Source of the DNA: Escherichia phage Ioannina
Direction: 5' to 3' (one strand)
Length of the DNA stretch: 45,270 nt
Sequence record: OQ589852.1
The notes beneath the pieces were generated by a model, which saw only the letters and a list, made by a program, of their open reading frames with translations, made no database searches and had not been told where the DNA came from. Below are positions 4,579 through 40,175 of this stretch, one piece after another. The first letter of the stretch is position 1. Every line of letters starts with the position of its first letter. The position numbers and the translations under genes were made by a program.

Positions 4579-4879
4579 ATACGCAGCAGCCGGATTGATT
4601 CTCGGCCTTGTAATTGGGTTCTGGCAAGGTGACAACTATCGTGCTGGCGTGGTGGCGGAGGCGGCGCAGGAAGCGCAAGCCAAAGCCCAACGGCAGCAAA
4701 CTAAGGTAATCCATGAGTCGGTACAGAAAGAGCAGGCCCGCGAAGTGGAGTTCCGCACAGTTGAGAAAGAGGTGATTAAATATGTCACGCGTCCTGATCG
4801 CGATAATTGTAAGTTTGATGCTGACCGCGTGCGGATCAAGCAACGTGCCGTTGATGCCGCTAACGGAATCAGCAATTAA
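4571..4879 (+). CDS. Rz-like i-spanin
   Basis: N-terminal TM helix (AAAGLILGLVIGFW), Q/A/E-rich coiled coil; an out-of-frame lipoprotein ORF overlaps its 3' half, the classic Rz/Rz1 arrangement. Confidence 0.6.
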   Translation: MIKYAAAGLILGLVIGFWQGDNYRAGVVAEAAQEAQAKAQRQQTKVIHESVQKEQAREVEFRTVEKEVIKYVTRPDRDNCKFDADRVRIKQRAVDAANGISN

Positions 4880-5012
4880 GCCGCCGTGTAAGTTTGAGTC
4901 GCCATCGGAAGATCCGGACGAAGATTTAGCGATTGATGTGCGAAATATGAAATGCGGGGCGGAGTTAAGGGCACAAGTGCTGGATTTGCAGAAATTAATT
5001 AAGGGGCCGTAA
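4782..5012 (+). CDS. Rz1-like o-spanin lipoprotein
   Basis: Signal peptide with lipobox LTAC, Pro-rich mature part with Cys; begins inside Rz in another frame and runs past its stop. Confidence 0.65.
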   Translation: MSRVLIAIIVSLMLTACGSSNVPLMPLTESAIKPPCKFESPSEDPDEDLAIDVRNMKCGAELRAQVLDLQKLIKGP

Positions 5013-5025: not shown

Positions 5026-5787
5026 TTAGCGCGGAATACCGCAGATTTCGTTTAGTGTCTTCACGTCAAGCGCTACTGCCGTTGACTTCTTCTCTTCCTG
5101 CGGGATGAACTGTTTCACTTCAGGCCATGCCTTAATAAGTTTGGTGTCTGTAGTGTACTTATTCAGAGTACCCATAACTGACAATTTAAACTCATCGTAT
5201 TTAGCACGTAAATCGCGGCGCGCCTTGTCGTTCTTATCCAGACGTTTGCAAAATTCATGCTCTGCCGGGTAATCTGCACGACCGCGAGGCTTGTAGATCG
5301 GCACTTGCTCACCTTCCGCGTTAATTTCCACCAGCGCCGTAAGTAGCGCAGTTTCAAACCCAGGTACGATTTCGCCAATGTCCGGGGCCATCGAGTTATT
5401 GTAGCGGTCTTCCCAGTAGCCTCGGTGACAGCGGCTGCTGTAGTTATCACCGCTCAATGACAGTGTGCGGATGTTACCACCCATGTTGACTTCGAACGTT
5501 GCATCGTACACAGCACCAATGCCGTGGGGCATGTCCTTGTTATGGCTGAAGGTTGCACGGCTGGCGTACACGCTTATGCTAAACATGCCGTTATTTGTGT
5601 CTTGATAGCTGCGCATCATTTTCTGCAACCCAACGAAGCTGGTAACACCTTTCGGCATCTGATCCAGAGTGATATCCAGCGCCAGGTCGCGCGATTCGGT
5701 CATTAACTTTTTGGCCTGCTTCGTGATTTCGTGGCCTGCCAGGATGTTAGCCAGGATTTGCTTTTTAATGTCTTTAGTCAGTCTCAT
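5026..5787 (-). CDS. hypothetical protein, early-promoter-driven minus-strand gene inside the structural module
   Basis: About 253 aa from MRLTKDIKK with GAGGAAACAACA RBS; own promoter upstream and own terminator downstream; no recognisable motif. Confidence 0.5.
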   Translation of the reverse strand: MRLTKDIKKQILANILAGHEITKQAKKLMTESRDLALDITLDQMPKGVTSFVGLQKMMRSYQDTNNGMFSISVYASRATFSHNKDMPHGIGAVYDATFEVNMGGNIRTLSLSGDNYSSRCHRGYWEDRYNNSMAPDIGEIVPGFETALLTALVEINAEGEQVPIYKPRGRADYPAEHEFCKRLDKNDKARRDLRAKYDEFKLSVMGTLNKYTTDTKLIKAWPEVKQFIPQEEKKSTAVALDVKTLNEICGIPR

Positions 5788-5810: not shown

Positions 5811-5885
5811 TGCAACCAATATATTGCAACCAATTAGCCAATGCAAGCAAATTTTGTGATTATTTTTATCACTGATAATATTAAG
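5811..5885. promoter_or_regulatory. divergent promoter region with tandem TGCAACCAAT repeats
   Basis: Minus strand reads TTGCAT-N17-TATATT, overlapping two ATTGGTTGCA copies; plus strand has TTGTGA-N16-TAATAT upstream of the scaffold gene. Confidence 0.55.
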
Positions 5886-11832: not shown

Positions 11833-14475
11833 ATGGCAGATCAAGCGGCAGGCATCACGCTAAAGGCGGATGTTGCACAAATCAGAACGGCGAATACTGT
11901 GCTTGATTCATTCGCACAGAAATCAGAGAACACAGAAAACAAGGTTAAGAAATTAAACAACACCCTCGGCAACTCTAAAAAGGTGACGAGTGATGCCGCT
12001 GGCGGAATGGAAAAGCTGGCGAACGAATCGCATCGAGCAGCCGATGGCATGACGAAACAGGAGCGACTCGCCAACCGGTTAGGCATGTCGACCAAAAACC
12101 TGGGCTTTGCCTCGCGTAACGCCGCATTCCAGTTACAGGATATAGCGGTTACGCTTGAGATGGGTATGCCGGTGCACCGCGTCATGCTTCAGCAGTTACC
12201 ACAGCTTACTGGGGCGTTCGGTGGGTTTGGTAACACGCTGCGTTATGTTGCTGGCTTCCTCGGCCCAGTAGGGATCGGAATTGCAGCACTAACGGCAACG
12301 TTAGGCGTAGGGGTGGCAATTACGTCACGTGCCGAAAACCAGGTAGCAGCGCTTAACAAGACGCTGGCGCTATCCGGTAACATTTCCGGCCTAACTGCAA
12401 ACCAGATCCTGGTGCTATCCGAGAACGCCGAGCGCATGGGCGGGTCGTTCCGCAAGACGCGTGACACAATCCAGGCGCTGGCGGCGGCGGGTGTGAAAGC
12501 GGGTGCAGACTTCGGCACGCTGGCGAAAGTGGTGAATGATTTTGCGAAGGCGTCCAGCCAGCCGATCGAGGATGTGGTCGCGGCGGTGGCGAAGCTGTCT
12601 ACCGACCCGGTAGGTGGCTTGCGAGCATTGGCTGATAAGTATCACGTCGTAAACGAAGCGCAGATCCAGCAGGTGCAGTCACTAGTGACGGCTGGTCGCG
12701 AAACCGAAGCGGTGGCGCTGGCTAACAAAACAGCCGCAGCGTCGTTTACCACTATGACCAATGAGATCAAGTCCAACATGGGTACGCTTGAGCGGTCGAT
12801 GAACGTCGTTACATCGGCAGCTAAATCTATGTGGGATGCCATCCTGGATGTTGGACGCGCGCAGTCCTCGAATGAGTCAGAGATGAAAGCGCGTGAATCA
12901 TTGCAGCGACTGACCACGGCTTACTATGCCGAGATGAAAGCGGTAAACGCTGCCGGTGGGGTGATGACCGAAGCGCAGAAATCGCGTATTAACATGCTTT
13001 ACAGCGAACTGGTCGCCCAGGAGAAGGTGGTGGCGTCGCTCACCCTGCGCAACCGTGCCGAGCGGGACAACGCCAGCGCCGCGGACGCAGCAGCAAAGGC
13101 GAACGAAGAGGCAAACCGCACCGCCCGCGACCGCGCTGCGTTTGAGAAGGAGTACGCAACCAACGCGAAGAGGCGCGCCGACGAGATCGCCCGCCTCAAT
13201 TTGCTTAATAAGCGCGGCGTGATTGACGAGAAAGAGCTTGCCGAGGCGGTGAAGCAGGTAAACGAGCGTTACAAAGACCCCGCCCCGAAGAAGGCCGCCG
13301 CTGTTCGAGTCGATGCCGGGCTGAAAATGCTGGAAGTAGCACGGAGCGAACTGGCACAGCTTCGTGAGTCTGGAAAGCAGATCGAAGCCAACTCCTCGAC
13401 GCAGACCCGAACGCAACGCGCGCAAGCGGCCCTGAACAAGCTGATCGCGGATAATGAGCAGTTAATCGCCGCAAGCAAAGAAAGAGCACTAACGGCAGCC
13501 GAAAAGCAGCAGATGGTCGAATTCGGACGCGTGAAGGAAGTACGCGAGCAGATCGTCGAAGAAGCCAAATTGCTGGACGCGAAAGAGAAGCAGGTCAAGG
13601 CGCACGTGCAGATCGACGCCTTCGTTAAGAACCAGAACGCCGAGCTAAAAGCCACCGCGGCGGGCTATGCGCTTTCCACTCGCGAAGCGGCAAACCTGCG
13701 TGAAGAATTGCAGCTAATTGACCGCCTGAAGCGGGTGGGCGCTAGTGATACCGATATTGATCTGGCGGTGTCTAAACTGCGCGAAGTGCAGGAAGCACAG
13801 ACCGGTGCTAACGCCTCACTATGGGATGGATTCAGCCGTGGGCTTAAGGATAGCGTGGATGAAATGGGTAACGGCTATACGCAGATGGTATCGGCAACGA
13901 AATTTACATTCGGCGCTATGATGGACACGATGAATGAATTTTTCGAGACTGGTAAATTCAACGCGAAGGAAATGATTAAATCCATCCTGAGCGAATTTAT
14001 CAAGCTGGCTACCTCGCAGGCGTTCAAGTCCGTAATCAACGCATTCGGCGGTGACGGTGGGAAGAATGGTCTGTTCGGGGCAATCTTCTCCGGTCTGACG
14101 AAGAATGCCGACGGAGGAGCGTACGCTGGCGGCAACCTGTCCGCATATTCCGGTCAGATCGTAAGCCAGCCAACCTTTTTCAATTACGGCGTTAAGGCGT
14201 TCGCTAACGGCGCGGGATTGATGGGTGAGGCTGGGCCGGAGGCCATCATGCCGCTGAAGCGCGGGCCGGACGGTAAACTGGGCGTTGCCGCAAGTGGGGC
14301 TGGTGGTGGAATCGTCGTGACAACGAACGTGAACATGGGTACAGGGCAGGCTTACACCAGCGTTAAAGGGACCGACCCGCGAATGGGGCAGGTATTCGGC
14401 AAGCAGATCACGGAAGCGGTTAAGGCCGAAATCGTGAAAGCGACTAAACCAGGTGGAGTACTTTACAAACGATGA
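11833..14475 (+). CDS. tail tape measure protein
   Basis: 880 aa, long Ala/Gln/Glu-rich coiled coil, Gly-rich C-terminal part; downstream of G/GT. Confidence 0.9.
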   Translation: MADQAAGITLKADVAQIRTANTVLDSFAQKSENTENKVKKLNNTLGNSKKVTSDAAGGMEKLANESHRAADGMTKQERLANRLGMSTKNLGFASRNAAFQLQDIAVTLEMGMPVHRVMLQQLPQLTGAFGGFGNTLRYVAGFLGPVGIGIAALTATLGVGVAITSRAENQVAALNKTLALSGNISGLTANQILVLSENAERMGGSFRKTRDTIQALAAAGVKAGADFGTLAKVVNDFAKASSQPIEDVVAAVAKLSTDPVGGLRALADKYHVVNEAQIQQVQSLVTAGRETEAVALANKTAAASFTTMTNEIKSNMGTLERSMNVVTSAAKSMWDAILDVGRAQSSNESEMKARESLQRLTTAYYAEMKAVNAAGGVMTEAQKSRINMLYSELVAQEKVVASLTLRNRAERDNASAADAAAKANEEANRTARDRAAFEKEYATNAKRRADEIARLNLLNKRGVIDEKELAEAVKQVNERYKDPAPKKAAAVRVDAGLKMLEVARSELAQLRESGKQIEANSSTQTRTQRAQAALNKLIADNEQLIAASKERALTAAEKQQMVEFGRVKEVREQIVEEAKLLDAKEKQVKAHVQIDAFVKNQNAELKATAAGYALSTREAANLREELQLIDRLKRVGASDTDIDLAVSKLREVQEAQTGANASLWDGFSRGLKDSVDEMGNGYTQMVSATKFTFGAMMDTMNEFFETGKFNAKEMIKSILSEFIKLATSQAFKSVINAFGGDGGKNGLFGAIFSGLTKNADGGAYAGGNLSAYSGQIVSQPTFFNYGVKAFANGAGLMGEAGPEAIMPLKRGPDGKLGVAASGAGGGIVVTTNVNMGTGQAYTSVKGTDPRMGQVFGKQITEAVKAEIVKATKPGGVLYKR

Positions 14476-16639: not shown

Positions 16640-17247
16640 CCACGTTTAAATTATACGGCGTCTTAGGACGCCGTTTTGGTAAAGAGCATAAGCTGGACTG
16701 TTTCACACCAGGCGAGGGAATTACCGGTCTGTGTGTGAAATTGCCCGGCTTACAGGAATTTTTAATGTCTGCGCACCTGGACAATATGATGTTCAAAGTG
16801 CGTAAAGGCGGCCACACAATGGGAAGCACCGATGAACTGGGCGAATCCCACGGCAACCGCGTCATTACCATCGCGCCAGTTATGACGGGTGCAAAAAGCG
16901 GCTTAGGCCAATTGCTGGCTGGCGTGGCTATCGTAGTAGCCTCGTTCTATACGGGTGGTCTTGCAACTGCCGCTTTCGGAGCTTCCGCCGCCACCGCTGC
17001 CGCGATCGGGACCGCCACATTCTCATTCGGTATGTCAATGGCGCTGGGTGGTGTTATGCAGCTACTATCACCGCAACCGAAAGGATTGCAGACACGCCAG
17101 GATGTTGATAACAAAGCATCGTACGCGTTCGGCGGGCCAGTAAACACGACTGCGCAAGGGACCGCACTTGGTGTATTATGGGGCGAGCGTGAGATCGGCG
17201 GCGCTATTATTTCTGCCGGTATCGTAACTGAGGATTTACACGAATGA
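16591..17247 (+). CDS. tail assembly protein I-like
   Basis: Gly/Ala-rich hydrophobic C-terminal half; overlaps the K-like gene; the true start may be the downstream Met (MAMTTFKLYG). Confidence 0.55.
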   Translation: MGKTQRPTGENCDMAMTTFKLYGVLGRRFGKEHKLDCFTPGEGITGLCVKLPGLQEFLMSAHLDNMMFKVRKGGHTMGSTDELGESHGNRVITIAPVMTGAKSGLGQLLAGVAIVVASFYTGGLATAAFGASAATAAAIGTATFSFGMSMALGGVMQLLSPQPKGLQTRQDVDNKASYAFGGPVNTTAQGTALGVLWGEREIGGAIISAGIVTEDLHE

Positions 17248-20200
17248 CTATCGTCTATTCCGTAACGGGCCATAAGGGCGGTGGCGGGAAACAGCATACC
17301 CCGCAAGAAACACCCGACAGCCTGCACTCGCTGGCTAAAATCCGCATTCTGCTAGCACTGGGAGAAGGGGAATTTGAAGGAATCCCGTCGGCAGCCGAGC
17401 TACGCAAGCGTGTCTATCTGGACGGCACGCCGATCATGAACGAGGATAACTCGGAAAACTTCCCTGGCGCGCGCGTTGAGTTCCGCCCTGGCACACAGCA
17501 CCAGGACGTGATTCACGGATTTTCAGCCGTGGAAAGCGAGTCGTCGGTAAACGTCAAGCTGGAGCAGGGCGCACCGTGGGTACGTCAAATCACCGACACC
17601 AGTCTGGACGCGGTGCGCATTCGTATTGGCATTCCTGCGTTGTACACCAACGAAGATAACGGCGACCTGGTTGGTGGGCGTATCGACTATAAGATCGTGG
17701 TGTACACCGACAACGCCGATCCGCGTGAGTTTGCATTCGCTGCCGTTGGTAAAACAATGTCGCTGTATGAGCGCGACCACCGCATCGAATTACCGTCGAA
17801 CGTTAACACCGGCTGGCGCGTCGAAGTGCACCGCATCACCGCAGACTCCACCTCGGCGAAAGTGGTAAACGATATTCGCGTACAATCTATCACCGAGATA
17901 ATCGACGCCCGTTTGCGCTACCCGCTAACCGCGTTGCTGTTCGTTGAGTTTGATGCGAAGGCTTTCCAGGATATCCCGCGCGTGTCTATCAAGTGCAAAG
18001 GCCGCAAAGTGCTGATCCCGACCAACTACGACCCGATCGCACATACCTATAGCGGCGACTGGGACGGCACTTTCAAGCGTGCATGGACGGATAACCCTGC
18101 GTGGCACTGGTACGATATTTGTATTACGGAACGCTTCGGCCTCGGTCGTCGCATCAAGCCGCAGATGCTAAACCGCTATGCGCTTTACCAGATTGCACAA
18201 CGCTGCGATCAGATGGTTAGTGACGGCAACGGCGGACAAGAAATACGGTTTAAGAATGATATGTACATACAGTCGCAGACCGACGCATGGACCGTTCTGA
18301 AGGACTTAGCCGCCATCTTCGCCGGAATGACCTGGTGGGGCAATCAGATGCTGAATATTGTCAGTGACCAACCAGTCGCTGCGGTTTCGCACACCATTAC
18401 GAATGCCTCCGTTATTGATGGGCGATTCGATTATGCGTCTGGCAGCCAGAAGACTCGCTATTCAACATTCGCGGTGGCATACGGCAATCCGGCTAACCAC
18501 TACGATGACGCAATCGCAACGGGCCAGCGCGTGGAACTGGTGCGCCGCCACAAGATTAACCGCCTTGATATTACGGCGATCGGCTGTACGCGTGAATCTG
18601 AAGCGCAACGCCGCGGTCACTGGGCGCTTATTTCAAACCAGCTTGACCAGCAGGTTAGCTTTAAAGTAGGTATGGAAGGTCTGTTCTTCATTCCGGGGAG
18701 CGTGGTCGCTATCGCCGACACCAACATTTCCGGCGGTTTCGAGATTCGCGGCGGTCGCTTACTGGAAGACCCAGGCACGCGCACGGTGCTTAACACAGAC
18801 GAAGAAATCACATTCCGCCCAGGTGATAAATTCCTGGTGCGCACTGCGAACGGTAGTGTCGAGACTCGCGCAATATCAAGCGTCAACGGCAACAAGGTTA
18901 CGTTATCCAGTGCCCTGGACGCAGACCCGATCCCGTTCCAGCCGTTTTGCGTCGACGGTGATGATATTCAGGTGCAGAAGTTCCGCATCACCGATCTGGA
19001 GTATGACGACGCAACCAGCACTTTCTCGGTGCGCGGGATTGAGTACAACGACAGCAAATATGATGCCGTTGATAATGGCGCTCGTCTTGATCCTGGCATC
19101 TTTACGCAAATGCCGGACGGTGTGCTGAAGGGGCCGGAATCCGTAACCATTACCCCGTCGCAGATTTCAAGCCAGGGTCAGTTAATCACCAACGTGGATA
19201 TTGTCTTTCCACCGGTGAAAAATGCCGTTGTATATGAAATCCAGTGGCGAAGGACCAGCCTTCAGAATATGGCGTTGCAGTGGGGTAACGACTGGGTAAA
19301 CTTGCCGCGTACGCCGTCGAACGGTGCACACATCCCCAACGTGTTCTCCGGTAACTACCAGGCGCGCGTCCGCGCAATCGGTATGGGTGAAATCTCATCC
19401 CCGTGGGTAGAGTCTGCCATCACGCCGATCGAGGGTCGTTTAGGTGGGCTGAATGCGCCAATCATTACGGCGGCAGTTTCCGGTTTGCATCAGATCTTGT
19501 GGAAGTGGAATCACAACAACGCTGCGACCGATATTTCATACACAGAGCTTGAAGTGCGCAAGCCAGGGACTGAAGAGTGGCACTTCCTCACTAACGTGCC
19601 GTACCCAGGCGCGGAGTACGCGCAGACTTCGCTTGAGTTCGGGATTTACCAGCAGTTGCGAGCGCGCGTAGCAGATAAAATCGGCAACCTGTCCGATTGG
19701 TCCGCACCGTTTGAAGGCCAGGTGAGCGATAAAGTTGACGACTACATGAAGGGACTCGACGATGAGTTTCTTACTTCTGAAGACGGCAAGCACTTCCAGG
19801 AACAGATCGACACGTTCCCGCAAGGCATTTACGAGTCAATGCTTACGGACGCGCAGCAGTTGCTTAACGCACGTGCCGAGTATCAAGGTATTTACGCCGA
19901 GATCAAAGTGGCCTATAACGTTGCTGCCGATGCGCACCAGGCGGTCGCTGAACTGGAAACGCTGATCGGCACGCGCCTTGATGATGCGGAAGCCGCAATC
20001 CATACGCTACAGACTGCGCAGAGCACACACGAACAGGCGTTCGCTCAGTACCAGCAAACGGTGTCAGCTAAGTTTGGCGATCAGGAAGCCGCAATCCAGT
20101 CAGTGCAAACGGCAACGAGTGATGTAGCCAGCGCTCTGGCGACCTACAAAACACAGGTAGCCGCGCAGTTCGGGCAACAGTCCGCCGCGATCGAGCAGAA

Positions 20201-20690
20201 AATGACGTCTACGTTTAACCACTCTGGTGGTAACGCAACCTACAGCCTGAAAGCTGGAGTTACGTACAACGGGACGTATTATGATGCCGGTATGCAGCTT
20301 TCGGTAGTTGCCGAAGGGAACTCGGTTAAATCGCGCATCGCGTTCAAGGCGGACCAGTTCTACATCATGCACCCGTCGAACGGTACGCTATCCTCCGCGT
20401 TCATCGTTGACGGCGGGCAGGTGTACATCGACACGGCCCGAATCAAGAACGCGTCCATTAACTTTGCGCAGATCACGGACACGCTGCAATCCAACAACTG
20501 GCAGCCTGGCAGCCAGGGGTGGCGAATCGCGAAGGATGGCGGCGCGGAGTTTAACAACGTGACAATCCGCGGCAACGTGTATGCGCAGACTGGTAACTTC
20601 GGTTTTTCAAGTGGGTCGGTACAAATCGACTGGTCGGGGGTAAACGTGCCGTTGCCTGGCGGAGGGCGGGTTAAAGTGGGGGTGTGGTAA
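17244..20690 (+). CDS. host specificity / tip attachment protein J-like (central tail fiber)
   Basis: 1148 aa, last gene of the M-L-K-I-J series; size and position match lambda gpJ. Confidence 0.85.
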   Translation: MTIVYSVTGHKGGGGKQHTPQETPDSLHSLAKIRILLALGEGEFEGIPSAAELRKRVYLDGTPIMNEDNSENFPGARVEFRPGTQHQDVIHGFSAVESESSVNVKLEQGAPWVRQITDTSLDAVRIRIGIPALYTNEDNGDLVGGRIDYKIVVYTDNADPREFAFAAVGKTMSLYERDHRIELPSNVNTGWRVEVHRITADSTSAKVVNDIRVQSITEIIDARLRYPLTALLFVEFDAKAFQDIPRVSIKCKGRKVLIPTNYDPIAHTYSGDWDGTFKRAWTDNPAWHWYDICITERFGLGRRIKPQMLNRYALYQIAQRCDQMVSDGNGGQEIRFKNDMYIQSQTDAWTVLKDLAAIFAGMTWWGNQMLNIVSDQPVAAVSHTITNASVIDGRFDYASGSQKTRYSTFAVAYGNPANHYDDAIATGQRVELVRRHKINRLDITAIGCTRESEAQRRGHWALISNQLDQQVSFKVGMEGLFFIPGSVVAIADTNISGGFEIRGGRLLEDPGTRTVLNTDEEITFRPGDKFLVRTANGSVETRAISSVNGNKVTLSSALDADPIPFQPFCVDGDDIQVQKFRITDLEYDDATSTFSVRGIEYNDSKYDAVDNGARLDPGIFTQMPDGVLKGPESVTITPSQISSQGQLITNVDIVFPPVKNAVVYEIQWRRTSLQNMALQWGNDWVNLPRTPSNGAHIPNVFSGNYQARVRAIGMGEISSPWVESAITPIEGRLGGLNAPIITAAVSGLHQILWKWNHNNAATDISYTELEVRKPGTEEWHFLTNVPYPGAEYAQTSLEFGIYQQLRARVADKIGNLSDWSAPFEGQVSDKVDDYMKGLDDEFLTSEDGKHFQEQIDTFPQGIYESMLTDAQQLLNARAEYQGIYAEIKVAYNVAADAHQAVAELETLIGTRLDDAEAAIHTLQTAQSTHEQAFAQYQQTVSAKFGDQEAAIQSVQTATSDVASALATYKTQVAAQFGQQSAAIEQKMTSTFNHSGGNATYSLKAGVTYNGTYYDAGMQLSVVAEGNSVKSRIAFKADQFYIMHPSNGTLSSAFIVDGGQVYIDTARIKNASINFAQITDTLQSNNWQPGSQGWRIAKDGGAEFNNVTIRGNVYAQTGNFGFSSGSVQIDWSGVNVPLPGGGRVKVGVW

Positions 20691-20696
20691 AACGCA

Positions 20697-20718
20697 AGGG
20701 GCCGTTTGGCCCCTTTCT
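20697..20718. terminator. bidirectional rho-independent terminator (AAGGGGCC-loop-GGCCCCTTT)
   Basis: Same stem family as 5002-5025 and 25167-25190; between convergent J and the minus-strand gene. Confidence 0.7.
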
Positions 20719-21692
20719 TAATACATATTAGGAAGGACAATCAGCGGTGTTGGTACGACAACATTGCGGTTAGGCATCTGGAATTGCTGCCGTGAATAGT
20801 TGCCAATGACGCGGTTTTTCGCTGCACCAACGACGCTACCCGCCATGCGTATCCCGTTCATGCGTACGTGGTTATAACCGCTATTGTTTTCAATAAGCGC
20901 GCCCGTGTATGAAAGCTGAATAAGGCTGTTACCGATATTCTGCCACCCTGCGCTAAGGTCAACCGTCCCGTTAAACACAAACGGCTTATTGACGGTGGAG
21001 AATGTAACCTGGCCTGCGTTGTTGGTCATCGTGATACCGGTTCCGGGGCTTGGCGGTGTGTTATTGAATATAACCAATTCCATGTCAACGGCAGCACCCA
21101 CATCATCAATCCCGCCGTAAGCCGCATTGCGGACGATAATACTGCCTCCATCGAAGCCAACCGACACGTTAGGGTCATCCCAACGGGCGAACGGAACACC
21201 TCCTACCGGCAGCGGCATACTTCCGTTCACATGGACGCGCTGCGCGTAGCGACAGGTCATCAGCCGAGCGACGTTTGATATGGCGGTAAAGTCCGTCGAG
21301 TTAGCCACCAGAAGCCCAGCATTACGCGACCCCACCGGCAGCACTTCCATAATCGTTCCCGCCCAGGTTGGAAGCCCGCTATAAGCGCCCAGCGCGTCAG
21401 CACCGTGCAGCGTAATTCCGCCATCACCATTTCGAGATATTGACGTTACAAACATCGGATCGGGTATTACCAGTGTTTGGTCGAACACTTCCACCACTTC
21501 AACGGGATTAGTTAGCACGACTATAAGCTGCGATCCAGGCGTTAGCGGAGTATTGACTGTTAGCGTCTTGTCAGATTGGCAGCGCTGATTAAAATTGGTA
21601 CAAAAAGACGGAGCACGAAGCCCCGCCGTAATTTCCATTCTTGGACGTCCATCGTTGTATTCGATAAGGATACCTGCACCCATAATTACCAC
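20718..21692 (-). CDS. hypothetical beta-rich protein (possible receptor-binding or secreted partner of the lipoprotein)
   Basis: 324 aa, Gly/Asn/Thr/Val-rich; second gene of a minus-strand cassette antisense to the tail genes; no motif recognised. Confidence 0.5.
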   Translation of the reverse strand: MVIMGAGILIEYNDGRPRMEITAGLRAPSFCTNFNQRCQSDKTLTVNTPLTPGSQLIVVLTNPVEVVEVFDQTLVIPDPMFVTSISRNGDGGITLHGADALGAYSGLPTWAGTIMEVLPVGSRNAGLLVANSTDFTAISNVARLMTCRYAQRVHVNGSMPLPVGGVPFARWDDPNVSVGFDGGSIIVRNAAYGGIDDVGAAVDMELVIFNNTPPSPGTGITMTNNAGQVTFSTVNKPFVFNGTVDLSAGWQNIGNSLIQLSYTGALIENNSGYNHVRMNGIRMAGSVVGAAKNRVIGNYSRQQFQMPNRNVVVPTPLIVLPNMY

Positions 21693-21910
21693 TCCCGTGA
21701 TTTAACTGATACCGTACCAGAGAAGTTACCGTCTGAATCTGCCGCCAAACCGGTGAATCGCATGTCAATGCCTCCGGCAGCGACCTTTTGCCCGTCAACA
21801 TAACGCAACATGCAGCTTCCCGCAACGTAGGTAACGCAATCGCCATTATGACGCTCAACAGCACAACCACACACCATAGCAACGACTAAAATACTTAATA
21901 AAGTTTTCAT
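21686..21910 (-). CDS. small lipoprotein, candidate Cor/Llp-like superinfection-exclusion protein
   Basis: About 74 aa from MKTLLSILVVAMVCGC (signal peptide with Cys); AAGGAG RBS; early-type promoter upstream; sits beside host-range genes as cor does in lambdoid phages and llp in T5. Confidence 0.45.
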   Translation of the reverse strand: MKTLLSILVVAMVCGCAVERHNGDCVTYVAGSCMLRYVDGQKVAAGGIDMRFTGLAADSDGNFSGTVSVKSREW

Positions 21911-21935
21911 GGTATCATCTCCTTTGTTTTGACAA

Positions 21936-21975
21936 CTTAAATATAGTGCAACCAATACGTGATTGCAACCAATTT
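21936..21975 (-). promoter_or_regulatory. early-type promoter (TTGCAA-N17-TATATT) with tandem ATTGGTTGCA repeats
   Basis: Read on the minus strand: ATTGGTTGCAATCACGTATTGGTTGCACTATATT; drives the lipoprotein cassette. Confidence 0.55.
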
Positions 21976-21991
21976 ATGAGGAGTTTTCGCT

Positions 21992-24016
21992 ATGGCAGCG
22001 GGTACACTTAACGTAACAAACAACAGCAAGGCCGTAACGGGGTCGGGCACGACGTTTACGTCATTGAAAGCGGGCGACTTTTTATCGCTGGTGGTGGGGC
22101 AAGTCCCGTACACCGTCGCGATTGAGTCAATCCAGAGCAACACGGCGCTTACGCTGGCGCTGCCGTTTGACGGCCCAACGTCTACCGGTCTGGCGTGGGA
22201 CTCCGTATCCCGCGATACGATGTCGCTGGCGACTATGGGTGTGACCGTACAGGCGCAGAAAGCGCTACGCATGTTGATTGCTGACGAAAGCAACTGGCGA
22301 GCAATCTTCGGCGACGCAGAGCAAATCAGCGTGACACTGCCAAACGGCACGGTTATGCAGGGTATGTCGTGGGGCTATTTGTCCAGCCTTCTAAAAGACG
22401 TCGATCCGGTTGAGCTTCAGAATATTGCCAACCAGGCGGTTAACGCTAAAAACCAGGCTGTAACGGCGAAGAACGACGCCGTGTCTGCTAAGAACGATGC
22501 GCAGACTGCGAAGACTGCCGCAGAAACAGCGCGCACACAGGCCCAGTCGGCTAAGACCGCCGCAGAGTCAGCACGTGACGACGCGCAGACGGCTAAGACT
22601 GCCGCAGAAACAGCACGCACCCAGGCACAGACCGCGAAGACCGCCGCAGAAACCGCCCAGGGTGCGGCGGAAGACGCCCGCGATGAGGCGAAGCAATATG
22701 CAGAGCAAGCCGGAGCACCATATAAGCAGGTATTACAACCGCTACCAGACGTGTGGGTTCCGTTTAACGATTCGCTGGATATGCTCGCAGGCTTCGCGCC
22801 AGGATACAAGACGGTTACGGTAGCCGACGACGAGGTTATTATGCCTAGCGACAAGGTGGTGTCGTTCAAGCGCGCATCAACGGCAACATATATTAACAAG
22901 TCCGGCGAGTTTAAAATCGCAGATATTGACGAGCCGCGGTTCGAGAAATACGGCCTGCTTATCGAAGGCCAGCGCACTAACCACATCACCAACGGGGGCG
23001 CTCCGGCTGCCTGGGGCCGCAGCACATCGGTTGGAGTGGTTACGGGTACAGATGATTTCGGTTTCTTGTATGGAAAGTTTGGTATCGGCCAGGGCGACGT
23101 GGGCAGTACGACTGCGCGTAACCTGGCTTCCGTAACATCAGTAAACAGTCTGGATACTTCCGGCGACGATAAGTATGTAACGGCGTCATGCCGCTTTCGG
23201 TCCGACAAGGATGTACGTCTTCGTGTGCGTTTTGCAGAAGGCGCGGATCAAGGCAGCATAGCTTTCTCTGGCGACGCGTACATTAAATTAAGCGATTTGT
23301 CCGTGTCTAAGACGGGTGTCGCGGCAGACCGCATTACCGTAGAAGTAGAGAAAGACGAAGCCACCGGATGGAATCGTGCGGTGGTAATGCTGCAAGCTAC
23401 CACGGCGCTGGTGAACGCGCAGATCCAGATCTCGCCAGTGAGCAGTTATGCTGCCGGTGATTATATCGAACTGGCAACTCCGCAGGTTGAGTTAGGGATC
23501 GGGGCGTCTTCATATATAATCTCCGGAACATCTCCAACCACACGCGCCAGCGATATGGTGACGGTACCGGCTAACCGCAACCTGTATAACCTGCCGTTTA
23601 CGGTGCTTGTAGAAGCGCACAAGAACTGGTCTAAGGCGCCGAACGCAGCGCCGCGTGTATTCGACACCGGCGGTAATCAATCGGGTGCGGCTATTATCCT
23701 TGGATTCGGGTCTGGCGCTATTGACGGGTATCCGTACTGCAACATCGGCAGTGCTAACGGACGTGTGAGTGAAAACGCAGGGCTTAAGCATATGGTTATG
23801 GGTATGCGTGTGAAAGAAAACCAGAACACTTGCGCGGTGAGTAACGGCACTCTTTCGACCGAATCTAAAACCACATGGACCTACCTGCAAGGGTCTGCAA
23901 CGCTGCGAATCGGCGGGCAGACCACGAACGGAGACAGACACCTGTTCGGGCACGTCCGTAACTTCCGTATCTGGCATAAAGCACTGACCGACTTACAAAT
24001 GGGAGAATTAGTATGA
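21992..24016 (+). CDS. tail fiber protein
   Basis: 674 aa; fiber-type N-terminal module, Ala/Lys/Thr/Gln coiled-coil repeats (AKTAAETARTQAQ x4-5), beta-rich C-terminal domain. Confidence 0.75.
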   Translation: MAAGTLNVTNNSKAVTGSGTTFTSLKAGDFLSLVVGQVPYTVAIESIQSNTALTLALPFDGPTSTGLAWDSVSRDTMSLATMGVTVQAQKALRMLIADESNWRAIFGDAEQISVTLPNGTVMQGMSWGYLSSLLKDVDPVELQNIANQAVNAKNQAVTAKNDAVSAKNDAQTAKTAAETARTQAQSAKTAAESARDDAQTAKTAAETARTQAQTAKTAAETAQGAAEDARDEAKQYAEQAGAPYKQVLQPLPDVWVPFNDSLDMLAGFAPGYKTVTVADDEVIMPSDKVVSFKRASTATYINKSGEFKIADIDEPRFEKYGLLIEGQRTNHITNGGAPAAWGRSTSVGVVTGTDDFGFLYGKFGIGQGDVGSTTARNLASVTSVNSLDTSGDDKYVTASCRFRSDKDVRLRVRFAEGADQGSIAFSGDAYIKLSDLSVSKTGVAADRITVEVEKDEATGWNRAVVMLQATTALVNAQIQISPVSSYAAGDYIELATPQVELGIGASSYIISGTSPTTRASDMVTVPANRNLYNLPFTVLVEAHKNWSKAPNAAPRVFDTGGNQSGAAIILGFGSGAIDGYPYCNIGSANGRVSENAGLKHMVMGMRVKENQNTCAVSNGTLSTESKTTWTYLQGSATLRIGGQTTNGDRHLFGHVRNFRIWHKALTDLQMGELV

Positions 24017-24270
24017 AAGACTTAACGCTGAAGTTTGAAAACAAGGCCGCTTTTGCGGCCTTCAAAGCGCAGTTAAACTGGGACGAGAACGAAACGTTGC
24101 AAGATGATATTCTGCTTGATGTCATCGGCAACATGTATGATGGTGATGAGGATAATCTCGTTGCCGTTGAGGGCTACTTCGTTAACGTGCGCATTCTTGA
24201 CGACGACCACGGCATTAACTTTGAGCAGTATGCCGTTGTGTTAGACTCACCACTTCGTCAATGGGCTTAA
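24013..24270 (+). CDS. hypothetical acidic protein (possible fiber assembly factor)
   Basis: 85 aa, start overlaps the fiber stop (ATGA); no motif. Confidence 0.35.
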   Translation: MKDLTLKFENKAAFAAFKAQLNWDENETLQDDILLDVIGNMYDGDEDNLVAVEGYFVNVRILDDDHGINFEQYAVVLDSPLRQWA

Positions 24271-24340
24271 GAGGGTAAATCATGGTTACTAAAACAAACA
24301 TCCCAGCGGATATACGGCGCTGAAAAATTCTACTTCATCA

Positions 24341-25084
24341 TTGTCGTCTGACAAGATGGATAAGTCAGCCAATTTGTCGGACCTGGCAGACAAAACTGAG
24401 GCGCGAAGTCATCTTGGTTTAGGGTCAGCAGCCACGTTGGACGTAGGGGATAGCAGCGGAAACGCGATGAAGGTTGGTGATTTTGGATTGGGGCGACCTA
24501 ACGGCGCTAAGGTTTTCTATACTACCTCGCAAGACACGCTACTTGCTGGACTGGACCAATACGGTTTATGTGTGTTCAGGAACGACCTGCAGATCGCTGC
24601 GCCGTGGGATATATGGAACTATTCATCAAACCTGTTCTTCCGCGCCGGAGATACTTACAGTATGCTAAGCATACCGTTTGAGGCGGCTGGTAAGGTGAAG
24701 GTTTTCGGCGGTGCCGCGGGTTACGGGTGGAAGACAGGGCGAACACTGCTCGATAACACAACGACGACTATTGACACTAACGGATTTGTCAAGCAAGCAT
24801 CGCCGATTGTTAAAGTATTTGGTGATGGTAAATTTGAGGTTAATGAAGAGTCGAAAGGGGCTAGTGTAGATCGCATATCCGTCGGCGTTTATCGTATCTC
24901 TGGTGTTCTCGGTCTTAACTCAGATGCGGCCTGGGGTGGCGTAGGCGGTGGCTTCGAGATTCCGGTAGACATCAACAAGCAGCCGCGGGTGTGGGTTGAC
25001 TTCGAGGTTGAGCCTGAAGGGTCTATCATTCTTAAAACGTACCACCGGACACACGACACGGCTCCGTCTTTTGCAAAAACATAA
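24341..25084 (+). CDS. tail fiber-like protein (second fiber or receptor-binding module)
   Basis: N-terminal NLSDLADKTEARSHLGLGSAA motif is common in phage fiber proteins; Gly-rich beta C-terminus; start uncertain (TTG at 24341 or ATG near 24356). Confidence 0.5.
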   Translation: MSSDKMDKSANLSDLADKTEARSHLGLGSAATLDVGDSSGNAMKVGDFGLGRPNGAKVFYTTSQDTLLAGLDQYGLCVFRNDLQIAAPWDIWNYSSNLFFRAGDTYSMLSIPFEAAGKVKVFGGAAGYGWKTGRTLLDNTTTTIDTNGFVKQASPIVKVFGDGKFEVNEESKGASVDRISVGVYRISGVLGLNSDAAWGGVGGGFEIPVDINKQPRVWVDFEVEPEGSIILKTYHRTHDTAPSFAKT

Positions 25085-26321: not shown

Positions 26322-26356
26322 GTTAATATAGTGCAACCAACCTATTGGTTGCAAGT
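26322..26356 (-). promoter_or_regulatory. early-type promoter containing perfect palindrome TGCAACCAA-N4-TTGGTTGCA
   Basis: Minus strand reads TTGCAA-N18-TATATT; the palindrome looks like a dimer operator. Confidence 0.55.
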
Positions 26357-27034
26357 AAATTTTGCAACGTTTATTGCGTAAATTTTCGGGACTAAATCGC
26401 TGCACGCCCGACGAATTGCCGCGATGTTCTTCGGGCAGTCCTCGATGATGACCAGTTCCGACACATCCGCATAGCAAACCATTTGGAACACGGCGCACGC
26501 CTTAAACTCTGGCGGCGGGGTGTCGTCCAGCATGTGGCGCATAAACAACCGGCCTACCGGGAAGACCTCCAATTGCTTGGCGGTGGTATCCCAACATTCT
26601 CGCTGCCGGTTGGTCAGATACGCTATCTCGAAGCCTTGCTCTTTGTACATGCGCAGCAGCGGCAGCATATCCATGTTAAGGTCTTCGCGTACGTGTGCTT
26701 TGTGCCACTTCGCCCAAAAGGTTGATTTGGTTTTTATGCCGGGCACCAGGTCAGCACGCGCATCACTTGAACCATTAATAACGCCATCCAGATCACAAAT
26801 CAGTAGTTTCATTTTTAAGCTCTCAATAAGGGTGTAGCGGGCGCTTCGCGCAGTAACGGAGTTGCATACAAAATGGCAACGCTTGGTTATGACAAGCCAG
26901 CCGGTGAGGTCCAGGCCCAGGATGTATTCCGGGCGGCTGGCGCGCATCACTCGGTCGCGGCGCGGGTCGATGTTATAGTCTCTTTGCATTTGGTCTACTA
27001 CCGCGGGGTCGCGGTCAACGATTAAGATATTCAT
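26342..27034 (-). CDS. HAD-superfamily phosphatase-like protein with N-terminal extension
   Basis: Internal MKLLICDLDGVINGS matches HAD motif I (DxDG); N-terminal 75 aa unassigned and may be a separate small ORF. Confidence 0.45.
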   Translation of the reverse strand: MNILIVDRDPAVVDQMQRDYNIDPRRDRVMRASRPEYILGLDLTGWLVITKRCHFVCNSVTARSARYTLIESLKMKLLICDLDGVINGSSDARADLVPGIKTKSTFWAKWHKAHVREDLNMDMLPLLRMYKEQGFEIAYLTNRQRECWDTTAKQLEVFPVGRLFMRHMLDDTPPPEFKACAVFQMVCYADVSELVIIEDCPKNIAAIRRACSDLVPKIYAINVAKFTCNQ

Positions 27035-27500
27035 GTAACTCACTCTCGCTCATTATTTCAATTTGTGCGCTGCCGATTGGCGGCGCTTCGTCAAAGATTA
27101 TCAATTGCTGGCACTTGTTATTGCTCGGCCCGACTTCACCGGTGACAGCGTGTATAAATCTCACCCGCCAGTCCAGAAGAATTATCAGGTTTGCAGTCTT
27201 CCGGGCCAGCCTCGCCCACTTCGTCGACGTGTCCTGATTCAGTAGCATGACCGTCCGGCGTCCGTGCGCTGCGCATTCGACCCACGGCAGCGGATCGGAA
27301 TACGGCGGATTGCACCACTTCCACCCTTTCAACTCTGCCCAGTCCACATCAAGCGCGCTATGTTCTGCCGTGAAGTAACGCGGTAGCAGGTGGTTGGCAT
27401 CGCTTGCCGCCATATCGTAACGGAATCGGTATTTCCGACGAAGCGGTTTGAATAAAGCTGGCGGCGTGCGCCAGCTATCTTTTTGCTCACTCTTCTGCAT
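27015..27500 (-). CDS. dam: DNA N6-adenine methyltransferase (phage Dam family)
   Basis: 161 aa; WRTPPALF N-terminus and catalytic WCNPPY motif. Confidence 0.85.
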   Translation of the reverse strand: MQKSEQKDSWRTPPALFKPLRRKYRFRYDMAASDANHLLPRYFTAEHSALDVDWAELKGWKWCNPPYSDPLPWVECAAHGRRTVMLLNQDTSTKWARLARKTANLIILLDWRVRFIHAVTGEVGPSNNKCQQLIIFDEAPPIGSAQIEIMSESELHEYLNR

Positions 27501-27954
27501 GACCTGGATCTATCGCGTATAAAGGGACTTTATTGCCGGTTTTCATAACGCGCTGGACGCGCTTTGACTCCTCGGCGCTCATTGGGCGCATATCAGTGCT
27601 ATAACCACCGTTTGATGTGTGCCGCCACGCTATCAGCACCAGATCTTTCCGGTCGATCTTAGACTGGCGGCCCTTCGGTCGCACGTACGCCTCGGCCCGT
27701 TTGCAATGCTCGCGCAGACCTTCGGCAGTGATGCGGTTTAGTGCAACGCTGGTTGTGTATCCGGTGCGCTGCATAATCCCCATCAATTCGAAAAGCAGTT
27801 CGAAGCGCTCCTCTAACTCCTTGCGCACCTTCTCCTCACCTTCATAGCTCGCAAGGTAGGTGTCTGCCAGCGCGTTCGCACGTTCGGCCTGTTCGCGGGC
27901 TTCGAGGCATTGCGCGGCCCAGTATGCTTTTTCTTCTTGTAAAATTTTCATCGT
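27487..27954 (-). CDS. hypothetical protein
   Basis: About 155 aa from MKILQEEKAYW with GGAGA RBS; coiled-coil-like; early-type promoter directly upstream. Confidence 0.4.
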   Translation of the reverse strand, partial: TMKILQEEKAYWAAQCLEAREQAERANALADTYLASYEGEEKVRKELEERFELLFELMGIMQRTGYTTSVALNRITAEGLREHCKRAEAYVRPKGRQSKIDRKDLVLIAWRHTSNGGYSTDMRPMSAEESKRVQRVMKTGNKVPLYAIDPGHAEE

Positions 27955-27997
27955 GTTGTCTCCAGGTATTAAAAAGGGCGTTCCCTTCAGAACACCC

Positions 27998-28032
27998 CCA
28001 ATATAATGCAACCAATCTCGCAATGCAACCAA
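27998..28032 (-). promoter_or_regulatory. early-type promoter (TTGCAT-N17-TATATT) with tandem ATTGGTTGCA repeats
   Basis: Minus strand: ATTGGTTGCATTGCGAGATTGGTTGCATTATATT. Confidence 0.55.
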
Positions 28033-28033
28033 T

Positions 28034-30967: not shown

Positions 30968-31246
30968 TTATGCGACCAATTCCGCAACCAATAAATCAGC
31001 GTCGTGAATGTTGTCGATTACGCGAACGTCGGCCCCGCGCTTCGCCATGCGCTCATGTTCACGTACCTGGTGCGGCTTCGGCTTACCACCGGGGCGCTTC
31101 ACTTCAACGAATACGACTCTGCCGTTGATGATGATAATCAGGTCGGGAGCGCCGGTACGCCCTTCCCATGCCATTTTACGGCAGAATCCACCTGCCTCTT
31201 TTACCTCTTTCATCAGGTGACTTTGCATCTTGCCCTCAGGAGTCAT
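30968..31246 (-). CDS. VRR-NUC domain nuclease
   Basis: 92 aa; GAPDLIIIINGRVVFVEVKRPGG is a PD-(D/E)xK core of VRR-NUC type. Confidence 0.65.
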   Translation of the reverse strand: MTPEGKMQSHLMKEVKEAGGFCRKMAWEGRTGAPDLIIIINGRVVFVEVKRPGGKPKPHQVREHERMAKRGADVRVIDNIHDADLLVAELVA

Positions 31247-37269: not shown

Positions 37270-37305
37270 GTGAATAATAGATTGGTTGCAGGATGGGTGT
37301 CAACA
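37270..37305 (-). promoter_or_regulatory. leftward early promoter (TTGACA-N18-TATTAT)
   Basis: Consensus -35 hexamer on the minus strand, with a TGCAACCAAT copy in the spacer. Confidence 0.6.
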
Positions 37306-37477: not shown

Positions 37478-37807
37478 ATGAATATCAACGAAGCAATTGA
37501 AGTGTTATCTAATGCAATCCGCGGCGAGACGGGTAAATCCTGGTATTACACGAATGCGGTGGGTACTCTGCTATTTGAGGTGTCCCGATTATCGCGTGTC
37601 GAGAAAGAGCTTACCGCCAAACTTGAATTGCTGAACGGTACGGCGGCGAGCAAGCTGCAAAAGCATAACGAAGAAATGGAAGAATACAAAAAGCAGGTTA
37701 TCAGACTGCGTGAAGAAGGTAAGTCCTGGGCGATGATTGCCGAGTTAACGGGTATTAATCAGAGCACCGTTCGTTCTTGGGTCCGCAATACTAAAACTGC
37801 TAAGTAA
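37478..37807 (+). CDS. HTH DNA-binding regulator
   Basis: 109 aa; C-terminal helix-turn-helix (SWAMIAELTGINQSTVRSWV); first gene of the rightward operon beside the divergent promoters. Confidence 0.6.
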   Translation: MNINEAIEVLSNAIRGETGKSWYYTNAVGTLLFEVSRLSRVEKELTAKLELLNGTAASKLQKHNEEMEEYKKQVIRLREEGKSWAMIAELTGINQSTVRSWVRNTKTAK

Positions 37808-40084: not shown

Positions 40085-40087
40085 ATT

Positions 40088-40175
40088 TTGCGCGCATTGG
40101 TTGCCAATATGGTTAATTTGTGCGCGCATTGGTTGCCGGATTGAGCATTAAATTCATATCGTATTGGTTGCCGTG
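40088..40175. repeat. three direct repeats of (GCGCGC)ATTGGTTGCC spaced about 34 bp
   Basis: Immediately downstream of the primase-helicase stop. Confidence 0.7.

Follow-up and report, generated by a model that had tools for sequence, protein, structure and literature searches.

The two minus-strand genes between the J gene and the lateral tail fibre gene of Escherichia phage Ioannina very probably form a terminal host-recognition module of the Dhillonvirus type, that is, a two-gene operon antisense to the tail genes that encodes a receptor-binding protein and an exclusion lipoprotein for LptD. This module is already known from genetic mapping (Maffei et al., 2021) and from structures (Dunbar et al., 2025), and our analysis goes only slightly beyond the literature, in a shared promoter motif and in the contrast to an unlinked arrangement in Webervirus. 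The window, by which we mean the whole stretch of 45,270 nucleotides that was analyzed (record OQ589852.1), is a complete Dhillonvirus genome. Its closest records are three unannotated genomes named 'Dhillonvirus LM40P1', which show 99.4-99.6% identity across the first 23 kb of the window. The locus contains the following features.

17244..20690, plus strand: J-like tail tip protein of 1148 aa with matches to Pfam FNIII-A_GpJ, Phage-tail_3 and Phage_Tail_Tip; the Oekolampad counterpart carries the annotation J-like tail tip
20696..20715, both strands: GC-rich hairpin with an 8-bp stem (AAGGGGCC/GGCCCCUU) and a 4-nt loop, terminator-like both ways according to folding
20718..21683, minus strand: predicted LptD-binding receptor-binding protein of the central tail fibre, 321 aa, DUF6453 (PF20051; PDB 9RPT/9RPW/9RQI chain C)
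21686..21910, minus strand: putative superinfection-exclusion lipoprotein precursor, 74 aa, ATG at 21910 and TAA at 21688-21686 (PF24052, phrog_4281, homology to Rtp45)
21692..21696, minus strand: ribosome-binding site GGGAG, read from the sequence, 8 nt before the ATG of the receptor-binding protein and within the end of the lipoprotein gene
21919..21924, minus strand: ribosome-binding site AAGGAG, read from the sequence, 8 nt upstream of the lipoprotein ATG
21940..21973, minus strand: predicted cassette promoter from a consensus scan, -35 TTGCAA (21968-21963), 17 nt, -10 TATATT (21945-21940)
21992-24016, antisense to the two-gene cassette: lateral tail fibre gene

On the basis of strong family matches and synteny, both cassette genes are judged to be real. 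They are tightly coupled and run antisense to J as well as to the tail fibre gene. The stop codon of the lipoprotein gene lies 2 nt from the start of the receptor-binding-protein gene, and the same gap is found in Oekolampad, Bas85, AV129 and EK99P-1. In all 21 IMG/VR loci that hold a lipoprotein homologue, a homologue of the 321-aa protein follows directly on the same strand, and the position beside J is common to Dhillonvirus and Rogunavirus. The ribosome-binding site of the lipoprotein gene is kept in relatives as AGGAG or AGGGG. The initial annotation, made from the sequence alone, had correctly placed two open reading frames antisense to the tail operon, with respect to both gene content and coordinates.

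The reading frame of the receptor-binding protein ends with TAA at 20720-20718. Its listed start, GTG at 21692, gives 324 aa and adds three residues to the form that begins with ATG at 21683 (MGAGILI...). Every annotated relative begins at this ATG, as does the Oekolampad structural construct. By this start, the length of 324 aa given initially is corrected to 321 aa. The protein had also been described as having no recognisable motif, but it belongs to DUF6453 (PF20051; 3.8e-123, 410.9 bits, cut-off 25). Its sole PDB sequence match at E <= 1 was the Oekolampad protein (E 8.5e-178), with residues 1-321 aligned end to end, and its identity is 82% over the full length to the protein of Oekolampad (Bas18) and 86% to those of Bas83/Bas85. 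We also compared an AlphaFold2 model (pLDDT 80.7, pTM 0.83) with the PDB by Foldseek. The model matched 9RPT_C (E 3e-32, target-normalised TM-score 0.88, rmsd 2.6 Å), and no other PDB fold was matched at E <= 0.001. Neither the PDB sequence search (E <= 1) nor the fold search (E <= 0.001) gave any likeness to T5 pb5. The structure prediction proposed earlier as a check thus points to a receptor-binding protein. Of the two roles that had been offered for this protein, that of a separate receptor-binding protein, as in the T5 oad-llp pair, agrees with the 82% identity to a protein solved on LptDE and with the TM-score, whereas that of a second exclusion factor is rejected, given that the homologue is a receptor-binding protein on LptDE.

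The Oekolampad receptor-binding protein was solved on LptDE by cryo-EM (PDB 9RQI, 9RPT, 9RPW; Dunbar et al., PNAS 2025), and its Gln299 contacts EL4 of LptD (Dunbar et al., 2025). This residue is kept in the protein of the window, which argues for LptD as its receptor. Receptor-binding-protein loci downstream of gpJ have been reported to match receptor specificity (Maffei et al., PLoS Biol 2021), and lptD mutations block seven phages with the module, namely Oekolampad and six others (Maffei et al., 2021). Judging from these homologues, the 321-aa protein most likely binds LptD, the outer-membrane LPS exporter, and the predicted receptor is not FhuA, BtuB or LamB, the receptors of the phages named in the earlier proposed check. 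We infer the LptD specificity of this particular allele from the identity of 82-86%. The differences to the solved protein amount to 18% of the residues, which counts against our case; they cluster at 235-256, 283-287 and 304-309, and these clusters could be contact loops. Compared with the closest genomes, the gene shows five synonymous and no non-synonymous differences.

Attachment of receptor-binding proteins to the J tip has been proposed (Maffei et al., 2021), and J is the presumed docking partner of the 321-aa protein on the basis of that study. In our data, the only hint of such an attachment comes from the family-invariant blocks 1-23 and 123-135, which lie where confidence in the model is low.

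For the lipoprotein, a word-indexed protein search gave only three close relatives, and it was replaced by an exhaustive representative search and a viral-contig scan. The protein matched PF24052 (Phage_lipoprotein) in Pfam (9.4e-20, 70.8 bits, cut-off 27), phrog_4281 in PHROGs (2e-27) and, by phmmer, chain D of PDB 9RPS, which is Rtp45 (E 3.4e-6). The predicted signal peptide comprises residues 1-15, followed by Cys16, the predicted lipidated residue, in a V-C-G-C lipobox with Ala at +2. A PROSITE-type lipobox rule was passed by MKTLLSILVVAMVCG followed by this cysteine, and Cys16 aligns with the lipid cysteine Cys20 of Rtp45, so that the signal peptide and lipobox proposed earlier as a check were both predicted. 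The lipobox itself is unusual, which counts against our reading. The closest relatives have LSGC, and the cysteine at position -2 is atypical, since each of the 21 relatives that came from the viral-contig scan has S, T or V there. Cys25 and Cys33 are the counterparts of the Cys30-Cys38 disulfide of Rtp45; all 22 close sequences have both, and among distant ones they are nearly invariant. Position 47 is Gly in the window and invariably Asp or Glu in 21 close relatives. We considered whether this might indicate an impaired lipoprotein, but the idea was dropped, as distant family members also have Gly, Ser or Ala there.

The initial annotation had proposed a small Cys-containing lipoprotein that excludes other phages from the phage's own receptor and had named Cor and Llp as its models. 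The exclusion role is supported by the homology to PF24052 and Rtp45, whereas membership in the Cor or Llp families by sequence was not found. At E <= 1, the lipoprotein matched only PF24052 in Pfam and only phrog_4281 and phrog_34128 in PHROGs, both of which are function-unknown families; no Cor family was among these matches. Llp was likewise absent from the phmmer matches over all PDB chains at E <= 10, which consisted only of Rtp45 and three chance beta-lactamase hits, and NCBIfam gave nothing useful. By its homology, the lipoprotein is a predicted functional analogue of Cor and Llp and a sequence member of neither. By analogy with Rtp45, its most likely action in infected cells is to block LptD.

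Rtp45 was solved on the periplasmic side of LptDE (PDB 9RPS) and contains the Cys30-Cys38 disulfide (Dunbar et al., 2025). Its binding and the displacement of an LptD loop were shown, and we found no in vivo exclusion assay in that paper; the Oekolampad lipoprotein could not be expressed by its authors (Dunbar et al., 2025). Our preferred model is as follows. The 321-aa protein would be a stand-alone protein, attached to the far end of the J-like tail tip without a covalent bond. It would insert into the LptDE lumen and contact LptD extracellular loops 3-5 and 11, and this contact would lead to irreversible adsorption. After export and cleavage before Cys16, the 74-aa product would receive its lipid and reach the inner leaflet of the outer membrane, where it may bind the periplasmic side of LptD and push a beta-hairpin up the barrel. 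EL4 would then be displaced and binding of the receptor-binding protein lost, so that infected cells and lysis debris would no longer adsorb progeny or rival LptD-dependent phages. For the cassette of the window, we infer the attachment to J, the exclusion in vivo and the timing of expression. If the model is correct, the likely terminal receptor of Ioannina is LptD, an essential and conserved outer-membrane protein, resistance mutations are predicted in its loops EL4, EL5 and EL11, and the gene pair to exchange for host-range engineering is identified.

We also considered other readings of the locus. It seems improbable that the module is the same but that this allele recognises another receptor, or an LptD variant other than that of Oekolampad, through its diverged variable loops. 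The concentration of the 18% residue differences in three short stretches would be consistent with such a change, as would the mosaic nature of receptor-binding-protein loci, which are horizontally exchanged (Maffei et al., 2021), and the loop variants of the window are shared partly with EK99P-1 and partly with Oekolampad. However, LptD is paired with Rtp44 as well as with the Oekolampad protein, and these two are only 33% identical to each other. In addition, the Bas83-85 proteins, at 86% identity to that of the window, are predicted to be LptD-specific, and the cognate lipoprotein belongs to the LptD-binding Rtp45 family.

We regard it as very improbable that the 321-aa protein is a non-virion protein, whether a second exclusion factor or a 'moron' of the membrane. 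Such a role is suggested by the label of phrog_1265 ('moron ... membrane protein') and by several GenBank records that read 'membrane protein'. It would also fit co-transcription with an exclusion gene and the promoter type, which is common to non-structural genes and unexpected for a virion protein, and this latter point counts against our own reading. Nevertheless, the 321-aa protein has no transmembrane-like segment (maximum Kyte-Doolittle value of 1.25 over 19 residues) and no signal peptide; its identity as a membrane protein was rejected for want of a hydrophobic segment. Moreover, cryo-EM places its homologue on the extracellular face of LptDE, and in Webervirus the homologue is encoded next after J in the tail operon. 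Least credible of all is a role of the small lipoprotein in lysis, as an o-spanin or u-spanin. Although it is a small outer-membrane lipoprotein and one GenBank record calls a homologue 'u-spanin', a separate i-spanin/o-spanin pair is encoded in the window at 4571-5009, with identities of 72% and 66% to the spanins annotated in Oekolampad, and spanin identity was therefore rejected. Its homologue Rtp45 was seen bound inside LptDE, and in the IMG/VR loci its gene always accompanies that of the receptor-binding protein and not holin or endolysin genes.

Next, we compared the cassette with named systems. The closest counterpart is the pair of gp25 (receptor-binding protein) and gp26 (lipoprotein) in Oekolampad (Bas18), which shares with the window the genus, the locus between J and the lateral fibre, the orientation, the 2-nt spacing and the hairpin. 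Its lipoprotein, 77% identical, has LSGC where the window has VCGC and Asp where the window has Gly47, and its receptor-binding protein differs in the loops 235-256, 283-287 and 304-309. Rtp44/Rtp45 of phage Rtp (Rogunavirus, Drexlerviridae) likewise form a two-gene cassette antisense to J, and Rtp45 belongs to the same family as the lipoprotein of the window and has its lipid cysteine and disulfide pair in common with it; the exclusion mechanism is taken from its structure with LptDE. The identity to this type is only about 33% for the receptor-binding protein and about 31% for the lipoprotein, as measured on IMG/VR locus L030. The 2006 paper on the Rtp genome reportedly proposed Rtp45 as an exclusion lipoprotein and is said to describe repeated sites for the regulator Rtp52.

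T5 Oad (pb5) and Llp resemble the proposed module in combining a separate tail-tip receptor-binding protein with a small outer-membrane lipoprotein that inactivates the receptor from the periplasm. However, the T5 receptor is FhuA, and Llp works by long-range allostery, in contrast to the physical loop displacement by Rtp45. The proteins of the window showed no sequence similarity to the PDB entries of pb5 and Llp and no fold match at E <= 0.001. The llp gene has its own early promoter and is not known to share a transcript with oad. Cor of T1, phi80 and N15 is also a small lipoprotein encoded beside host-range genes that blocks the receptor of the phage; unlike the lipoprotein of the window, it pairs with FhuA (or BtuB) and comes together with two genes for membrane proteins. 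Webervirus, as represented by Klebsiella phage FZ10, has homologues of both the receptor-binding protein (32% identity) and the lipoprotein (42% identity, LSGC lipobox). In this phage, however, the two genes are unlinked. The former lies next after J on the same strand in the tail operon, and the latter is 10 kb away, among replication genes.

The cassette promoter is sigma-70-like, agrees with the consensus at 9 of 12 positions and has a predicted transcription start at about 21933. The match alone is not above chance, with 2 sites found in the region against 1.7 expected. However, five other Dhillonviruses carry the -35 block AAATTGGTTGCA unchanged. The motif ATTGGTTGCA occurs twice in the promoter, at 21973-21964, where it holds the -35 element, and at 21956-21947, where it abuts the -10 element; the Oekolampad promoter has TGTAATACT in its spacer where the window has the second copy and TATATT. 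The same architecture of ATTGGTTGCA followed by TATATT is also found upstream of five other genes, all non-structural, and was seen before other genes both in the window and in Oekolampad. A genus-conserved promoter motif would serve the cassette and several non-structural genes. In a limited literature search we found no description of it, and the string matched only unrelated primer sequences. Given the invariant -35 block and the motif shared with non-structural genes, 'early-type' is a plausible label for this promoter class. Separately, we considered whether a promoter-like sequence on the plus strand at 21568-21595 (10/12), within the receptor-binding-protein gene, might serve the tail fibre gene; it was treated as a chance match, since its -10 element is not kept in six relatives. 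The 81-nt intergenic region was also inspected for a tail fibre promoter and contains a perfect TTGACA on the plus strand, with no usable -10 element at 16-18 nt, so that we propose no promoter there.

We tentatively raise the possibility, doubtful as it is at present, that in Dhillonvirus the receptor-binding protein and the receptor-blocking lipoprotein form one expression unit under a genus-specific ATTGGTTGCA promoter class, perhaps controlled by a phage DNA-binding protein. Promoters of this class would carry one copy of the motif over the -35 element and a second abutting or overlapping the -10 element TATATT, and a candidate regulator is the conserved 109-aa helix-turn-helix protein encoded at 37478-37807. 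If this speculation is true, a dedicated phage regulator would co-time receptor blocking and receptor-binding-protein synthesis, in contrast to Webervirus, whose two genes occupy late and early regions.

The initial annotation had bracketed the cassette with an early-type promoter and a bidirectional terminator. The promoter is upheld by the invariant -35 block in relatives, and folding supports a terminator-like hairpin, whereas the 'early' timing stands only as a plausible class label. J and the receptor-binding-protein gene converge on a gap of 27 nt, which the hairpin fills. It did not appear in the list from a terminator consensus scan, and the U-tract is moderate in either direction. Its folding energy is -17.4 kcal/mol (z = -3.4) for the minus strand and -16.3 kcal/mol (z = -2.6) for the plus strand. 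HK578 and Rogunavirus AHS24 show compensatory changes that preserve the stem, and the latter has an annotated terminator in the same place.

A megablast search with positions 20600-22100 retrieved three unannotated genomes labelled "Dhillonvirus LM40P1" at 99.5-99.7% identity and approximately 50 other Dhillonviruses at 75-78%. In the whole-genome comparison, positions 1-22981 were 99.4-99.6% identical to the LM40P1 genomes. These identities place the window in the genus Dhillonvirus, as the complete genome of a small siphophage of E. coli. The gene order is that of the annotated relative Oekolampad (Bas18): terminase, portal, capsid, tail, the J-like tail tip gene (J), the cassette and the lateral tail fibre gene, followed by minus-strand replication and modification genes. 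The initial annotation had described two minus-strand ORFs between J and the tail fibre, flanked by an early-type promoter and a bidirectional terminator, and its coordinates and anatomy were correct. The features of the locus are:

17244-20690 (+), J, neighbour of the cassette on one side
21992-24016, lateral tail fibre gene, neighbour on the other side
ATG 21910 to TAA 21688-21686 (-), lipoprotein ORF, 74 aa, AAGGAG ahead of the start
from GTG 21692 (-), second ORF as listed, 324 aa
from ATG 21683 (-), receptor-binding protein gene, 321 aa (MGAGILI...), GGGAG ahead of the start

ATG 21683 is the annotated start in Oekolampad, Bas85, AV129 and EK99P-1, and also the start of the solved Oekolampad construct. 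It lies 2 nt from the lipoprotein stop, a spacing that makes translational coupling of the two genes probable.

Over its full length, the 321-aa protein belongs to Pfam DUF6453 (3.8e-123). The PDB sequence search gave a single match, chain C of 9RPT/9RPW/9RQI ('tail fiber protein', E 8.5e-178), with residues 1-321 aligned to 1-321. This chain is the receptor-binding protein of Oekolampad, to which our protein is 82% identical (86% to those of Bas83/Bas85). Dunbar et al. located the Oekolampad protein by cryo-EM on the extracellular side of Shigella flexneri LptDE, deep in the barrel lumen and in contact with loops EL3-5 and EL11. An AlphaFold2 model of the 321-aa protein, for which 20 homologues were used as input (pLDDT 80.7), had 9RPT_C as its only PDB fold match at E <= 0.001 (target-normalised TM-score 0.88). 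Structure prediction thus agrees with the suggestion that the partner gene encodes a separate receptor-binding protein. The labels 'membrane protein' and 'moron' (PHROGs, GenBank) are misleading, because the protein has neither a signal peptide nor a hydrophobic segment.

Across the 20 homologues (identity down to 31%), blocks 1-23 and 123-135, including the motif NSTDFTAIS, are the most conserved. It is in these same places, residues 1-22 and 119-138 (21683-21618 and 21329-21270), that confidence in the model is lowest. Only 254 of the 321 residues are modelled in 9RPT_C, and the phage-proximal part of the Oekolampad protein was poorly ordered (Dunbar et al.). Taken together, this gives a hint, and only a hint, of a J-docking surface that might fold upon binding. 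By homology, the present allele would bind LptD, and the protein would presumably dock on J. Close or moderate homologues also occur in a Campylobacter-labelled phage, A120 (60% identity), and in records labelled Vibrio phage Vc1 (42%) and Pseudomonas syringae phage PsgS01F (40%); either these T1-like phages range far past the enterobacteria, or the host labels are doubtful.

The 74-aa protein scored 70.8 bits (cut-off 27) against Pfam PF24052, 'Phage lipoprotein family'. In the PDB it matched chain D of 9RPS (E 3.4e-6), which is Rtp45, the lipoprotein of the Rogunavirus Rtp. As the initial annotation had supposed, its N-terminus, MKTLLSILVVAMVCG followed by C, looks like that of a lipoprotein, with a single basic residue, a hydrophobic core 11 residues long and a lipobox. 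Cys16 is in register with the lipid cysteine of Rtp45, Cys20, and the invariant Cys25 and Cys33 align with the Rtp45 disulfide Cys30-Cys38. The residue at +2 is Ala. Under the Lol-avoidance rule, Ala at +2 predicts sorting to the outer membrane, and this is the predicted location of the protein. Compared with the LM40P1 genomes, the lipoprotein gene has three non-synonymous and no synonymous differences (L13V, S14C and D47G), whereas the 2-5 differences in the receptor-binding protein gene are all synonymous (five against OZ035746, with 100% protein identity); these numbers are too small for a claim of selection. L13V and S14C change the lipobox from LSGC to VCGC, which still satisfies the lipobox rule and occurs in none of the other family members compared. 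Gly47 is also present in distant family members.

The cassette follows the same functional logic as Oad/Llp of T5, and the lipoprotein matches Cor in its functional role. However, neither protein fell into the T5 Oad/Llp or Cor families in Pfam, PHROGs, or PDB sequence and fold searches, so that the Cor or Llp affiliation considered for the lipoprotein gives way to PF24052/Rtp45. We assign the pair to the Oekolampad/Rtp44 receptor-binding protein family (Rtp44 being the Rtp member) and the Rtp45 lipoprotein family. T5 Llp blocks FhuA by allostery, whereas Rtp45, and by homology the 74-aa protein, would block by steric loop displacement. In the Rtp45-LptDE structure, the ~6-kDa lipoprotein occupies a periplasmic site close to strands 5-8, between LptE and LptM, and its hairpin reaches up the lumen. 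EL4 is thereby moved by as much as 20 A, a position that is not compatible with binding of the receptor-binding protein. The 74-aa lipoprotein would be expected to exclude in vivo. For the window itself, the analysis establishes the homologies, the fold, the lipobox, the pair of cysteines, the synteny and flanks that look regulatory, and LptD dependence and both complex structures have already been demonstrated in homologues. The receptor is most likely LptD. Between a second exclusion factor and a receptor-binding protein beside an exclusion lipoprotein, the latter, preferred in the initial annotation, was right, and the cassette is an already described module.

In all 21 IMG/VR loci with a lipoprotein homologue, a receptor-binding protein homologue comes next in the same orientation, only a few bases on, and the cassette adjoins J in both Dhillonvirus and Rogunavirus. 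Maffei et al. reported that the loci downstream of gpJ agree with receptor specificity without exceptions and move horizontally, and that lptD mutations block seven phages having this module; the 2025 BASEL paper predicted LptD for Bas83-85. In Klebsiella phage FZ10 (Webervirus), however, the homologues are unlinked. Its DUF6453 gene (12001-12957) is part of the tail operon, where it comes after J in the same orientation, and its lipoprotein homologue (22417-22644; LSGC lipobox, annotated 'PDDEXK-like') lies 10 kb away among replication genes. Therefore, pairing in a single operon is not obligatory. In phiEco32-like podoviruses (Kuravirus and relatives, such as phiEco32, KBNP1711, MN05 and Bas86), residues ~108-299 find a weak, partial counterpart of DUF6453 type (~25% identity), and a PF24052-family lipoprotein (33-39% identity) is encoded at a distant genome position; this may be a sign of LptD use or of a domain in common.

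An 8-bp GC-rich hairpin (dG -17.4 kcal/mol on the minus strand and -16.3 on the plus strand) occupies the 27-nt gap between the cassette and J. Its stem is kept through compensatory changes in HK578 and Rogunavirus AHS24, and AHS24 has an annotated terminator at this place.

Upstream of the cassette, a consensus scan found TTGCAA-17-TATATT, a 9/12 match that alone is not above chance. Its -35 block belongs to a 10-mer, ATTGGTTGCA, with 12 exact copies in the window and 21 at <=1 mismatch. The expected number is 3.7, and a count as high as the observed one did not arise in any of 100 shuffles. The copies are usually paired, 14-31 nt apart. Six units share a layout directly upstream of a same-strand gene start, in which one copy provides the -35 TTGCA(A/T) and the second lies directly against the -10 or overlaps it. 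The -10 reads TATATT in all units but the one at 30992, which has TATAGT. The motif sites and the genes downstream of them are:

21973/21956 (-), span 21947-21973, lipoprotein/receptor-binding protein cassette
28033/28016 (-), span 28007-28033, 151-aa gene (27490-27942, no family match), then Dam-like methylase
26341 (-), span 26332-26353 (-/+), DUF6378 gene
5834/5820 (-), span 5811-5834, Nmad5 gene, within the structural block
30992/30980 (-), span 30971-30992, small gene
40534/40565 (+), span 40534-40574, small gene
37281-37290 (+), 41098-41107 (-) and 43736-43745 (-), further sites

Oekolampad retains the sites at orthologous positions. At the cassette, other Dhillonviruses carry an extended -10-like TGTAATACT in place of the second copy. 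Given the shared layout and this conservation, 'early-type promoter' is thus fair as a class label, with early timing being presumed only. The motif has the look of a class of promoters or operators specific to the genus, and a limited literature search found no description of the motif.

The Nmad5 (nucleotide modification associated domain 5) gene (253 aa, 5029-5787, minus strand) lies antisense inside the head-gene block and is driven by the same predicted promoter type as the cassette. The intergenic region after the helicase gene (40081-40320) contains three 25-nt direct repeats, TTAAATTTTGCGCGCATTGGTTGCC, spaced 32-35 nt apart and ending in a variant of ATTGGTTGCA, and four copies of AAACGGGACAA, with an inverted copy at 40442-40462. 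Oekolampad shares these repeats, and the region could be an origin or a regulatory hub. The gene at 37478-37807 (+) encodes a 109-aa protein that ends in a helix-turn-helix (HTH_23 1e-6; Sigma70_r4_2 1.3e-6). The protein is conserved in ~150 Dhillonvirus records, where its annotation varies between transposase, resolvase and Gam. The 10-mer occurs ~190 nt upstream of its gene, and we speculate that this protein is a candidate binder of the motif.

Mosaic hot spots of the usual kind occur in three regions. Two of the three LM40P1 genomes contain no DNA match to the C-terminal half of the lateral tail fibre (22981-23939). The stretch after the tail fibre, 24013-25084, has an 85-aa ORF and a 247-aa Phage_tail_C_2 domain protein missing from the Oekolampad layout, and 26340-27967 is replaced or only 78% identical in the LM40P1 genomes.
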